Assembly: GCA_964638435.1 (NCBI GenBank)
Contig: CAZXAY010000002.1
Coordinates: 15,661 to 47,660, forward strand
DNA: 32,000 nt
DNA from: an uncultured Candidatus Saccharibacteria bacterium
Lineage (GTDB): Bacteria > Patescibacteriota > UBA1384 > JAMDBS01 > CAZXAY01
Reading direction: 5' to 3'
Part shown: one piece after another, positions 18,628-24,492 of the stretch
Position numbering within the stretch: position 1 is the first letter of the stretch
How the letters are laid out: each line of letters begins with the position of its first letter
Notes under the pieces: generated by a model
What the model saw: the letters and a program-made list of their open reading frames with translations, nothing else
Told to the model about the DNA's origin: nothing
Databases searched by the model: none
Position numbers and translations under genes: made by a program

Positions 18628-18642
18628 TATTAATTGTTCTAA

Positions 18643-18841
18643 GGGTCTGTCGCCGAATGTGCTTTGGGAATGAAAATTAATCACATTTGAGCGAAAACTT
18701 TAGTAGATGACGATGCCTATCAGGTGATAAGCAGAGGAATATAATGAAGTTTGTCCTTCGACAGGCTCAGGATGGTGAGCAAAGTCGAACCACAGCCAAA
18801 TGTGGTAATTTTCAGCCAAAATGATGTTTGGCGACAAACCC
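18643..18841 (+). mobile_element. MITE copy 1 (~199 bp) between rplR and rpsE, flanked by the 5-bp direct duplication tctaa
   Basis: The ends are gggtctgtcgcc...ggcgacaaaccc. The arms stay complementary for ~50 nt. tctaa occurs at 18638-18642 and again at 18842-18846. By eye it is ~90% identical to the copies at 19855 and 24130. Confidence 0.85.
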
Positions 18842-18854
18842 TCTAAAGGATATT

Positions 18855-19457
18855 ATGGAAAAAGAAAAAAAAGAATTTGAAGAAAGAGTAATAGAGATTA
18901 GCCGTGTTTCTCGTACCGTAAAAGGTGGGAGAAGGCTTAGATTCCGAGCACTTGTTGCTATTGGTAACCTAAATGGTAAAATTGGTATTGGTATTGGTAA
19001 AGCAAATGAGGTTGCCCAAGCTGTTCAAAAAGCTGTTAATAGAGCAAAAAAGAATATGATTAGTGTTACTATTACTAATAACACTATCCTTCATGAAGTA
19101 AAAATGCATTTTGGTGGTGCATATATATTTTTAAAGCCTGCTGCACCAGGAACATCCGTAATCGCTGGTAGTACAATTAGAACAGTTATTGAGCTTGCAG
19201 GTATAAAGAATATTCTTAGTAAAGCTCATGGATCATCAAATAAAATTAATAACGTAATGGCTACATTTCTCGCATTAGACAGCTTATCAAATAGAAGTGT
19301 TGGCCAAGACAAATATATTTCTAAATTGAAAGATAAAGCTGATTCTGATGAAAATATCGATAGTTCTTTAACAAAATCTGAATCAGGTGAAAATAAAAAA
19401 TCAACAAAATCTAATATATCTAAGGTAAAAAATGAAACTCAACGAGCTAAAAAATAA
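18855..19457 (+). CDS. rpsE: 30S ribosomal protein S5 (acidic/Lys-rich C-terminal extension)
   Basis: The start is set at [27 protein letters not shown] with SD aaagga (18845-18850). The ORF-track TTG at 18828 lies inside the MITE and is rejected. Confidence 0.93.
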
Positions 19458-19845: not shown

Positions 19846-19854
19846 AACTTAATA

Positions 19855-20055
19855 GGGTCTGTCGCCGAATGTGCTTTGGGAATGAAAATTAATCATATTC
19901 GAGCGAAAACTTTAGTAAGCTACGATGCCTATCAGGTATGATAAGCAGAGAAGATTAATAAAGTTTGTCCTTCGACAGGCTCAGGATGGTGAGCAAAGTC
20001 GAACCACAGCCGAATATGGTAATTTTCAGCCAAAATGATGTTTGGCGACAGTCCC
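19855..20055 (+). mobile_element. MITE copy 2 (~201 bp) between rplO and secY, flanked by the 5-bp duplication taata
   Basis: The ends are gggtctgtcgcc...ggcgacagtccc. taata occurs at 19850-19854 and at 20056-20060. Confidence 0.85.
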
Positions 20056-20073
20056 TAATAGTTTAAGGATCAA

Positions 20074-21348
20074 ATGCAAACAAATATCTCAAAAATATTT
20101 AAATTACCAGACTTACGTAATAAAATATTGATTACGGTAATATTATTAGTAATCTTTAGACTATTTGCGAATATTCCTTTACCTGGCGTCAATATTGATG
20201 AATTAAAAGATTTTTTTAATAACAATCAATTTTTTGGCATGATGAATATGTTTTCTGGTGGTGCTATGAAAAACTTTTCTTTAGCCATGATGGGTGTAGG
20301 ACCATATATTACCTCATCAATAATCTTTCAACTATTAACAATGATTGTTCCATCACTCGAAAATTTATCTAAAGAAGGGGATACTGGTAGACAAAAAATT
20401 AATCAATATACTAGAATTGTAACCGTGCCTCTTGCCCTTGTCCAATCATTTGCAATGATATCTTTATTAAAAAGTCAAGGTATAATTTCTGGCTGGCATG
20501 GTTTAGAACTTTTTACAATGTTATCTGCTCTAACAGCTGGTACAATATTATTGATGTGGTTAGGAGAATTAATATCAGAAAAAGGTATTGGTAATGGCAT
20601 ATCTCTAATTATTACTATTGGAATAATCTCTTCTGTCCCACCAATGATATTACAAACAATTTACGGACGAGATTTGTCAGATATATCGCAAGTAATTAGC
20701 CTCTTGATCTTTGGCGCTTTGGCTATAATTGTTACAGGATTAATTGTCTGGTTTAATTATTCAGAAAGACAAATCCCCATAACTTATGCTAGGAGGGTAA
20801 GAGGCATTAACAGTGGAGGAGTTGATACTTATTTACCACTCAGAGTTACTATGGCCGGAGTTATTCCAATAATTTTTGCTTTGTCCATAATGATTTTTCC
20901 AGGAGTAATTGCCAAGTTTTTTCAAGAAGCTCGCAGTGTTTCTTTGGCCAACTCTGCCAAATGGGTTGAACAATTATTTCAAAACCAAACTTTTTATGGT
21001 ATTACTTACTTTGTTATGGTAGTATTATTTACATTCTTCTACACATCAGTAGTTTTTAAACCAGATCAGGTTTCTGAAAATCTACAAAAACGAAGTGGAT
21101 TTATCCCGGGTCTTCGTCCTGGTAAAGAAACATCTCAATATCTTGAGTTTGTAGTTAGTAGAATTACTTTACTGGGGGCAGTCTTTTTGGGCTTAATTGC
21201 AGTTATGCCATTTATCATACCAAAAATCACTGACATTAGTAATATGGTTCTAGGCGGCACGGGAATTTTAATTGTTGTATCGGTAATACTTGATACAATT
21301 AGACAAATAAAAGCCCAAATAATTATGCGAAATTATGATCATTATTAA
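20074..21348 (+). CDS. secY: preprotein translocase subunit SecY
   Basis: 424-aa polytopic membrane protein with the GVGPYITSSIIFQLL block, in the canonical position after rplO. Confidence 0.95.
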   Translation: MQTNISKIFKLPDLRNKILITVILLVIFRLFANIPLPGVNIDELKDFFNNNQFFGMMNMFSGGAMKNFSLAMMGVGPYITSSIIFQLLTMIVPSLENLSKEGDTGRQKINQYTRIVTVPLALVQSFAMISLLKSQGIISGWHGLELFTMLSALTAGTILLMWLGELISEKGIGNGISLIITIGIISSVPPMILQTIYGRDLSDISQVISLLIFGALAIIVTGLIVWFNYSERQIPITYARRVRGINSGGVDTYLPLRVTMAGVIPIIFALSIMIFPGVIAKFFQEARSVSLANSAKWVEQLFQNQTFYGITYFVMVVLFTFFYTSVVFKPDQVSENLQKRSGFIPGLRPGKETSQYLEFVVSRITLLGAVFLGLIAVMPFIIPKITDISNMVLGGTGILIVVSVILDTIRQIKAQIIMRNYDHY

Positions 21349-21417: not shown

Positions 21418-22461
21418 ATGTCAAAATTACAACAAAACAAAAGTTTATTTAATTTAATGATTGTAGTTTTGGGAATAATAGCCATTGGTATATTATTTAC
21501 CACCAATGGAAGCAAACTCACAACAAAAACAACATCTAATTCTGACGACATCAGTCAAAATAATCAAAATCAAGGTGGCGGTGATCTAGATACTAAAAAA
21601 CTTGTTGAAACCATACCTACCCAAAAAATTTTATACAGTATAATAAATGATAAATATACTGATATTTATTCCTATGATTTTGTGACTAATAAACCATCAA
21701 AAGTTTTTACAGACAAAGATGAAGTTGATAAAATTAAAACTATATCATCTATAACAAATGAAGGTAAAGTGCTAGCGTTAATGAGCCAACCTGGACAAGA
21801 ATTTTCTGGCAAACTATATTTAATTAGAACCGATGGATCTGGTAAAAAAGAATTATTAATAGATGATTTTGCTAGTCCACAACCTGCTCAAATATCTCCA
21901 GATGGTAAAAAACTCTGTTATATATTGTTCTCTAATTCTGAGAAAGATTTTGGTTTTAAATTAATTGAGGCTGATAGTGATGGCTCTAACAAAAAACAAC
22001 TTACCACTGATACAACCAATATATCTCAACTAGGCTGGTCCCCTGATTCTAATAGTTTTGTATACATCAAAAGCAATAATAATGATATGTATAAAATTAA
22101 TATCACTACCTTAAAAGAAGAAAAAATTACGACTTTTAATGATGATCAATTACAAAGCTTTTCATGGAGTGAAATTGGAATTATTATTAGTAAATATCAA
22201 AAAGGAAATAATAATTTTAATAATGCCGAAATTTTTACTATTAATCTAACCGATAATTCTACTAAAAAAATTACTAGCAATTCACTTTACGATAATTTTG
22301 CTTATTACGATTCATTGGGTAATTTAGTATATTTGAGTCTTGATTATGATATTAAAGATGCCAATATACTTTATAAACAAGGGAAAATTCAACTATTATC
22401 CACAAATGGGATTACCAAAGAAGTTACTAACGCTAATCAAATATTAGGCTGGAAAAATTAA
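21418..22461 (+). CDS. membrane-anchored TolB-like (PD40 beta-propeller repeat) protein
   Basis: N-terminal TM LFNLMIVVLGIIAIGILFTT. Repeated ISPDGKKLCY and WSPDSNSFVY motifs are typical of PD40/WD40-like propeller blades. Confidence 0.55.
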   Translation: MSKLQQNKSLFNLMIVVLGIIAIGILFTTNGSKLTTKTTSNSDDISQNNQNQGGGDLDTKKLVETIPTQKILYSIINDKYTDIYSYDFVTNKPSKVFTDKDEVDKIKTISSITNEGKVLALMSQPGQEFSGKLYLIRTDGSGKKELLIDDFASPQPAQISPDGKKLCYILFSNSEKDFGFKLIEADSDGSNKKQLTTDTTNISQLGWSPDSNSFVYIKSNNNDMYKINITTLKEEKITTFNDDQLQSFSWSEIGIIISKYQKGNNNFNNAEIFTINLTDNSTKKITSNSLYDNFAYYDSLGNLVYLSLDYDIKDANILYKQGKIQLLSTNGITKEVTNANQILGWKN

Positions 22462-23910: not shown

Positions 23911-24123
23911 ATGACAAAAGATGTTATACAACAAGAAGGTATTGTGATTGAAGCATTACCTAATGCTCTATTTAAGGTTAAACTTGGAAATGAGCATGAG
24001 ATTCTTTGTCATATATCTGGCAAAATTAGAATGAATTTTATTAAAATTATGCCTGGAGATAAAGTTATTGTCGAGCTTACACCTTATGACTTATCTAAAG
24101 GCAGAATAACAAGAAGATTATAA
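23911..24123 (+). CDS. infA: translation initiation factor IF-1
   Basis: 70-aa S1-like OB protein with [16 protein letters not shown]...[18 protein letters not shown]. Confidence 0.95.
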
Positions 24124-24129
24124 TTATTA

Positions 24130-24331
24130 GGGTGCTGTCGCTGAATGTGCTTTTGAGATTAAAATTAGCCACATTCGAGCGAAAACTTTAGTAGATGACG
24201 ATGCCTATCAGGTATGATAAGCGGAGGAGACTAATAAAGTTTGTCCTTCGACAGGCTCAGGATGGTGAGCAAAGTCGAACCACAGGCAAATGTGGTAATT
24301 TTTAGCCAAAATGACGTTTGGCGACAGCACC
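24130..24331 (+). mobile_element. MITE copy 3 (~202 bp) between infA and rpmJ, flanked by atta (4 bp clear, 5th position ambiguous)
   Basis: The ends gggtgctgtcgc...gcgacagcacc carry paired changes that keep the terminal stem. atta occurs at 24126-24129 and at 24332-24335. Confidence 0.8.
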
Positions 24332-24345
24332 ATTAGAAAGTATTT

Positions 24346-24492
24346 ATGAATGTGGTAACACCGTCAGTTAAAAAAAGATGTGATAAATGTAAAATAATCA
24401 GAAGAAGTAAAAAAGGTAAAAGTTTTCATACTAAAAAACCTCGACTTTTTGTAAGATGCGAAAATAGACGACACAACCAAAGTCAAGGATAA
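24346..24492 (+). CDS. rpmJ: 50S ribosomal protein L36 (extended, 48 aa); not in the ORF track
   Basis: Hand translation: MNVVTPSVKKRCDKCKIIRRSKKGKSFHTKKPRLFVRCENRRHNQSQG. It has the L36 signature SVKK.C.KCK.IRR...V.CEN.RH.Q.QG with an ~11-aa internal insertion. Confidence 0.85.
   Translation: MNVVTPSVKKRCDKCKIIRRSKKGKSFHTKKPRLFVRCENRRHNQSQG

Follow-up and report, generated by a model that had tools for sequence, protein, structure and literature searches.

A hairpin MITE with three same-orientation copies in a ribosomal-protein operon of a groundwater CPR bacterium, and the strand-specific fold of its family

Three copies of one noncoding hairpin element, each about 200 nt in length, were located in a tiny groundwater bacterium of the CPR, between its ribosomal-protein genes. 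Positions given without a contig refer to the window, the whole stretch of 32,000 nt that was analyzed. All genes of the cluster lie on the plus strand, as do the three copies. Copy 1 (18643-18841, +) occupies the junction between rplR (ribosomal protein L18; 18268-18627, +; Pfam PF00861) and rpsE (S5; 18855-19457, +; Pfam PF00333/PF03719; ATG at 18855) and is bracketed by the direct repeat TCTAA at 18638-18642 and 18842-18846. Copy 2 (19855-20055, +), at the rplO-secY junction, is bracketed by TAATA at 19850-19854 and 20056-20060 and precedes secY (20074-21348, +; Pfam PF00344, E = 2e-101; ATG at 20074). The boundaries of both copies were drawn from a covariance model and the sequence, with Pfam matches on the flanks. 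Copy 3 (24131-24331, +; termini GGTGCTGTCGC...GCGACAGCACC) follows infA (IF-1; 23911-24123, +; Pfam PF01176, E = 5e-27), whose stop codon is 7 nt upstream of the element. Its left repeat, ATTAG, lies at 24126-24130 and its right repeat, ATTAG, at 24332-24336, followed by AAAGTATTT and by the ATG of rpmJ at 24346 (L36, 48 aa; 24346-24492, +; Pfam PF00444, E = 8e-8). Copy 3 was a 156.9-bit match to covariance model R1 on the plus strand, with no match above threshold on the minus strand. The initial annotation of the window, which had placed three sense-oriented copies in this operon, was borne out, and the span that it gave for copy 3 (24126-24335) comprises the element and most of its duplications.

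The gene for S13 in the same cluster was likewise confirmed with Pfam. The product of the gene named as L15 (19432-19845) had no Pfam match even at E = 0.01 and was named from its position and N-terminal motif. The 48-aa L36 includes an internal insertion relative to the usual length of about 38 aa. A 347-aa open reading frame (ORF) with faint beta-propeller matches lies between secY and adk (21418-22461), a place that is usually empty in such operons.

As first annotated, the elements at secY and rpmJ end 18 nt and 14 nt, respectively, before the next ATG; for rpsE the interval is 13 nt by the boundary of the covariance model and 14 nt by the earlier boundary. Upstream stop codons lie 15 nt (copy 1), 9 nt (copy 2), and 7 nt (copy 3) from the element. 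Removal of the element and one repeat leaves empty sites of roughly 23, 22, and 16 nt from stop codon to ATG, and the spacers before insertion were put at about 20 to 28 nt; upstream of secY in relatives, the median spacer is roughly 21 nt. The right-hand repeat of each copy abuts the Shine-Dalgarno (SD) region (TCTAA-AGGA, TAATA-GTTTAAGGA, and ATTAG-AAAG). Elsewhere in the family, 11 of 19 sense copies ended 10 to 24 nt upstream of a start codon, with an intervening SD sequence.

The copies very probably lie within a polycistronic mRNA, given the short spacers, the lack of a U-tract, and the lack of a convincing promoter or terminator. No U-tract followed the stem in the sense of the genes in any of 44 elements between codirectional genes, and scans of the region for promoters and terminators returned hits near the level of chance and nothing convincing. 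An internal promoter was considered and set aside, as the motif TTGACA occurred in some subfamilies with no conservation. A promoter-like TTGGCG-17-TATTAT arrangement spans the right end and flank of copy 1 (18828-18856); it is absent at copies 2 and 3 and is probably due to chance.

The host genome (G000) comprises 1.10 Mb in 75 contigs, with a G+C content of 33%; by SecY, its nearest named relatives are “Candidatus Berkelbacteria” and Patescibacteria metagenome-assembled genomes (about 60% identity). It holds approximately 16 copies and derivatives of the element, among them seven long copies, about eight short derivatives (approximately 56 nt), one left-end fragment, and one divergent copy. 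Terminal inverted repeats were present (GGGTCTGTCGCC.../...GGCGACAGACCC), and helix 1 was 96% paired over 15 diverse members. Other copies in the genome were bracketed by ATCAG, AAAAG, and AATAT, and elements of relatives were bracketed by AAATT, AAACA, ATTAT, AACAA, and TCTAA. Flanking repeats of at least 5 bp were found for 23 of 85 family members, compared to 4 of 85 at displaced control positions. These values, together with the copy number in the genome itself, exclude a chance origin of the repeated copies. An open frame on the plus strand was present in just 13 of 128 elements, and no ORF was conserved. Because the A/T-rich 5-bp duplications are specific to each copy, the element is classed from its sequence as mobile DNA, namely, a nonautonomous hairpin transposon (miniature inverted-repeat transposable element [MITE]) with GGGnCTGTCGCC termini, inverted ends of about 45 bp, and 5-bp A/T-rich target-site duplications. 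The MITE identity given in the initial annotation thus agrees with the terminal inverted repeats and copy-specific duplications that were seen.

Pairwise identity among the three operon copies is 88 to 92%, copy 1 is closer to a copy on another contig (contig 10; 98% identity) than to its neighbors, and the duplications differ, which together indicate separate insertion events. The short derivatives (GGGTCTGTCGCCGAATGTG/GTAATTTTCAGCCAAAATGATGTTTGGCGACAGACCC) have lost an interior of 140 nt between AATGTG direct repeats. They were found at G000 C7:30456-30511, C12:19519-19574, C21:10483-10538, C16:4472-4527, C16:23203-23257, and C1:30540-30595. Some of them carry 5-bp duplications of their own, so the short form has moved too.

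BLAST detected diverged relatives of about 162 nt in further genomes of the class; covariance model R1 was then used for the family search. By R1, 36 of the 151 class genomes carried the family, as did 9 genomes from other Patescibacteria classes, with 1 to 21 copies per genome and element lengths of 160 to 200 nt. No Rfam family matched; the best hit, to mir-885, was at chance level (E = 0.24). Subfamilies were distinguished by their termini (GGGnCTGT, GAGCCTGT, GAACCCAT, and AGACCTYT). Duplications of at least 5 bp were concentrated in the GGGnCTG type, and the other subfamilies had mostly 2- to 4-bp repeats that were not clearly above the control. A usable exact pattern was common to only about 10% of the known members.

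Conservation of the insertions was assessed in 160 related secY-operon loci (80 from metagenomes and 80 from named genomes, each with at most 6 kb of flank per side; 1.66 Mb in total). None carried an element inside the operon. The single R1 match among these loci was antisense, 9 nt before aspS and outside the operon. The three insertions are therefore lineage specific and not conserved among these relatives, the best of which had a SecY sequence just 71% identical to that of the host genome; an exact look-up of the InfA protein for sister strains returned no record. The suggestion in the initial annotation that the inserts had been co-opted was accordingly left without support, the copies being independent and diverged insertions that are missing from the related operons.

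The RNA of copy 3 was predicted to fold with −80.7 kcal/mol (z = −8.1 relative to dinucleotide shuffles) into an imperfect rod of about 35 bp that leads to a hairpin of 22 bp and has a single side branch. A long stem from the sense strand, as first annotated, is thus predicted, and the paired substitutions listed with it (cacattt/aaatgtg versus catattc/gaatatg, plus those in the termini of copy 3) are present in the sequence. An alignment of 15 members contained five helices with 56 pairs, 34 of which had compensatory changes; 90.6% of its cells were paired, compared to 77% after shuffling and 39 to 49% when the alignment was slid. Compensatory changes were found in 13 of 15 pairs of an internal, nonterminal helix. 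At paired positions over 88 elements, G·U occurred in 326 cells and A·C in 114 cells, with G·U in excess in 74 elements and A·C in excess in 8; with the elements clustered at 80% identity (50 clusters), the counts were 173 and 55 over 44 pair columns. The compensation in the internal helix and the excess of G·U over A·C point to a structure that exceeds the inverted repeats bound by a transposase.

The fold is specific to one strand. In an alignment-free comparison, 83 of 86 elements had a plus-strand RNA of greater stability than the complement, the mean difference being 14 kcal/mol, and the same held for all 28 elements fetched later. With DNA energy parameters, the plus strand was favored by 84 to 0. 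The asymmetry was alike in both contexts (sense, −15.5 kcal/mol; antisense, −16.3 kcal/mol), which excludes a mutation bias linked to host transcription or replication as its cause and makes it a property of the element lineage. The plus strand is also purine rich, and SD-like 4-mers (GGAG, GAGG, and AGGA) averaged 2.70 per element on the plus strand versus 0.36 on the minus strand across 128 elements, with the plus strand richer in 104 elements and poorer in 2. In copy 3, the SD-like motif GGAGGAG (24223-24229, +) lies in an internal loop by the apical hairpin and remains for the most part unpaired in the predicted fold. A small ORF downstream of the GGAGG motif was found in two copies only, with no conservation.

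Orientation was scored for those elements, out of 128 fetched with their flanks, that lay between codirectional genes. Family-wide, 29 of these were sense and 38 were antisense. In the host genome, 10 copies were sense, 3 were antisense (on C22 and C12 and the fragment on C28), and those on C31 and C63 were probably antisense, judging from Pfam matches of their flanks; the sense excess was not significant (P = 0.09 to 0.30). Antisense members were also found at comparable junctions, 7 nt before the ATG of secY in G112 (locus L089) and 4 nt before the ATG of rplX, between rplN and rplX of the spc operon, in G099 (L074); a sense member lies between fusA and tuf in G022. The proposal that only the orientation seen in the window is tolerated therefore fails across the family. 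In G099 (L074:1960-2260), the terminal ATGGGTTC of the antisense element adds an in-frame ATG and may extend or redefine the start of L24.

Within the GGGnCTG subfamily, to which the copies of the window belong, orientation was associated with spacer length in a pattern that was seen post hoc, with the subfamily rule and threshold chosen afterwards and with related genomes that are not independent: 11 sense and 2 antisense elements lay in spacers of <50 nt, and 4 sense and 11 antisense elements lay in spacers of ≥50 nt (Fisher's test, P = 0.003). Median spacers were about 32 nt for sense and 130 nt for antisense elements (Mann-Whitney test, P = 0.002), and both tests remained significant when the three copies of the window were left out (P = 0.015 and P = 0.009, respectively). 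The fresh replication set alone, which is small, ran in the same direction, with 2 sense elements in tight spacers and, among antisense elements, 1 borderline and 3 in long spacers. The AGACC-type subfamily was reversed (2 sense versus 12 antisense; P = 0.013), and a simple rule by which sense insertions are harmless and antisense insertions harmful thus cannot cover the whole family. These exploratory results suggest that orientation matters locally and in a subfamily-specific manner. Of the orientation proposal in the initial annotation, a restricted form thus survives, an exploratory sense preference in tight junctions of one subfamily.

AGACCTYT elements at L208, L209, L210, L212, L215, L220, L232, and L085 (genomes G185, G158, G190, G029, and G010) had their left end 0 to 2 nt from an ATG on the opposite strand. 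The flank there reads ...CAT(A) and then AGACC, with ATA-like repeats of about 3 bp. These elements are antisense to their neighbors and have inserted exactly at start codons.

Searches for an enzyme that mobilizes the element found none. No gene family recurred beside the elements, and a nonexhaustive search found no autonomous element with matching ends. The Tn3 transposase domain (PF01526) was absent from five carrier genomes (G000, G010, G029, G015, and G081), and control genomes gave matches. An insertion sequence (IS) with a DDE transposase adjoins the copy on contig 10 and was rejected as a source of mobility, being a different IS with unrelated ends (TCCCGACTTGTAACA). The IS itself (G000:C10:20253-22197) is about 1.6 kb long, encodes a 497-aa DDE_Tnp_1 transposase between its inverted ends, and is bracketed by a perfect 170-bp direct repeat, which is far above the usual target duplication and is possibly an assembly artifact.

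Seven RAYT-like Y1 transposase genes (209 to 230 aa; 25 to 60% mutual identity) and one IS200-type gene were also present in the host genome (C14:2531-2788, C5:5330-5566, C15:18572-18823, C23:1686-1925, C10:5253-5531, C20:8801-9133, C29:12107-12436, and C61:2820-3185), and RAYT-like genes occurred in all five carrier genomes that were searched for them. Mobilization by a RAYT/Y1 enzyme would explain a single-strand fold. This candidate was rejected because every RAYT-like gene of the host genome has, on either side, a REP-like hairpin of its own (TTAACC...GGTT), which is unrelated to the element, and because the element makes duplications. No R1 match lay beside any Y1 gene in the genome.

Several known repeats share features with the element. 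Its ends bear a weak, putative resemblance to the Tn3 inverted repeat (a GGGGTCTG start and a AACGAAAA block). The defining features of the Tn3-derived TIMEs are Tn3-type inverted repeats of 38 bp and A/T-rich duplications of 5 to 6 bp (PMC4133298). Like the element, they are noncoding, are about 200 to 260 bp long, have long terminal inverted repeats beginning GGG(G), and insert into A/T-rich sites with 5-bp duplications, of which AAATT and AATAT are common to both (PMC4133298). TIMEs, however, are found on plasmids of Pseudomonas, whereas the hosts here are CPR/Patescibacteria, and the carrier genomes examined lack the Tn3 transposase. The element further differs from TIMEs in its conserved internal hairpin, in its strand-specific fold, and in having other subfamilies with the same core but different termini and mostly shorter flanking repeats.

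Correia elements (CREE/NEMIS) of Neisseria are likewise hairpin MITEs near gene starts. They duplicate TA, whereas the duplications here are of 5 bp. Correia elements are confined to Neisseria and have an integration host factor (IHF) site and outward promoters, whereas the element has no consistent outward promoter. Correia elements are cotranscribed, and their stem is a proposed RNase III substrate with a modulating effect on neighboring genes (PMC2229807, PMC2649163). Enterobacterial ERIC/IRU sequences share with the element an imperfect palindrome and conservation over a wide host range; ERIC is 127 bp long and unrelated in sequence. ERIC sequences are cotranscribed, with an orientation-dependent effect on mRNA stability, according to the summary in PMC2229807 of De Gregorio 2005. 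That effect was measured for ERIC, whereas an effect here would be deduced from where each orientation survives. REPIN/REP sequences, which are mobilized by RAYT (Y1 HUH) transposases, are also short intergenic hairpin repeats, and REPINs are recognized as single strands; the RAYT-like genes here, in contrast, have the unrelated flanking hairpins described above. REPINs are not known to make target duplications. The element may thus be described as a hairpin MITE, one with TIME-like ends and duplications and a likeness to ERIC and Correia repeats in its putative cotranscription and orientation dependence.

We consider it probable, with appreciable doubt, that all three copies are selfish insertions which the host tolerates, the tiny spacers having dictated where they lie and their shared orientation being the one that survives in tight, SD-led junctions. 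Under this explanation, a hairpin MITE resembling the Tn3-derived TIMEs has inserted independently in this lineage, each copy landing on an A/T-rich pentamer immediately 5' of an SD sequence in a short intercistronic spacer. Only a narrow interval there spares both the stop codon on the upstream side and the SD sequence and ATG that follow, which explains the distances of 13 to 18 nt. The copies would be passive passengers of the polycistronic mRNA, in which the sense strand would close into a rod (about −80 kcal/mol). Because both ends of the rod are paired, the stop codon would stay near the next ribosome-binding site and no terminator would be formed. The shared orientation would most likely reflect orientation-dependent tolerance in tight junctions, which is partly supported by the data, and not a host function. 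The plus strand is purine rich, folds well, and exposes a GGAGG-like loop; the complement folds about 14 kcal/mol worse by prediction, and its CCUCC-like runs could pair with a neighboring SD sequence.

Other readings bear on the same observations. It is conceivable, at rather low probability, that the conserved core of about 160 nt is a mobile, strand-specific RNA module, a rod exposing a GGAGG-like loop, that alters the translation or stability of its neighbor according to orientation and that has spread through the Patescibacteria on at least two kinds of terminus with different target-site duplications. If true, this would explain both the sense survivors in tight SD-led junctions in one subfamily and the antisense insertions at start codons in another. 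The strand asymmetry could instead stem from a single-stranded DNA stage. A reading with no effect at the RNA level, in which orientation and position follow from the transposition machinery and chance and the strand fold from a single-stranded mobility step, is likewise of rather low probability. The balanced family total, the nonsignificant bias in the host genome, the equal asymmetry in sense and antisense contexts, and the unanimous preference obtained with DNA parameters are all in its favor, and the opposite biases of the GGG and AGAC types would fit asymmetric target recognition. The 5-bp duplications, however, are those of a staggered cut and point to double-strand insertion of the DDE type and not to any single-strand mechanism that is known, the genome's RAYT/Y1 genes have REP hairpins of their own, and target recognition alone does not predict an interaction of orientation with spacer length.

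Co-option by the host as a cis-acting RNA, whether for RNase III processing, as a 3'-end stabilizer, or as a translation-coupling or standby site, is improbable. The very stable predicted rod on the sense strand, the exposed GGAGG-like loop, an RNase III gene in the genome (G000:C9:4399-4785), and the Correia and ERIC precedents (PMC2229807) are consistent with it, as is the presence of 3 of about 16 copies in one gene cluster of approximately 17 kb, all sense, for which our own post hoc estimate of chance is about 0.01. Yet none of the 160 related operons has the element, the same family is antisense at the spc and secY junctions of other genomes, the 8 to 12% divergence among the copies has no sign of junction-specific adaptation, and the predicted accessibility of the SD sequence is inconsistent over the three junctions. 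That the elements are independently transcribed genes for structured small RNAs, and not transposons, is very improbable: strong covariation with an excess of G·U, conserved loops, phylum-wide distribution, and the lack of an Rfam match would suit such genes, but the copies have copy-specific 5-bp duplications, variable number, and unrelated locations, occur as truncated and internally deleted derivatives, lack a conserved promoter or terminator, and are inserted inside short operon spacers.

In practical terms, the three copies in the same orientation constitute no evidence of a recruited regulator. The strand-specific core found across the phylum is the part most worth following. The genomes of CPR/Patescibacteria are tiny and tightly packed, and little is known of their mobile DNA and posttranscriptional control; the family described here is spread over the phylum, is able to occupy essential ribosomal operons, and keeps its fold on one strand. 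If orientation-dependent survival holds, these insertions would be a natural experiment on the RNA structures that intercistronic junctions tolerate and a CPR counterpart of ERIC and Correia elements.

A hairpin of about 40 nt (CCTTCGACAGGCTCAGGATGGTGAGCAAAGTCGAA), here called hairpin B, was found in every long copy of the host genome, including those of the window at 18753-18793, 19967-20007, and 24243-24283. By alignment, the last of these (GTCCTTCGACAGGCTCAGGATGGTGAGCAAAGTCGAACCAC; 24243-24283, +) is nested in copy 3. Hairpin B was absent from the aligned elements of about 162 nt in other genomes and is thus a nested insertion. Stand-alone hairpins that resemble it were observed in four other genomes (G003, G008, G054, and G056).
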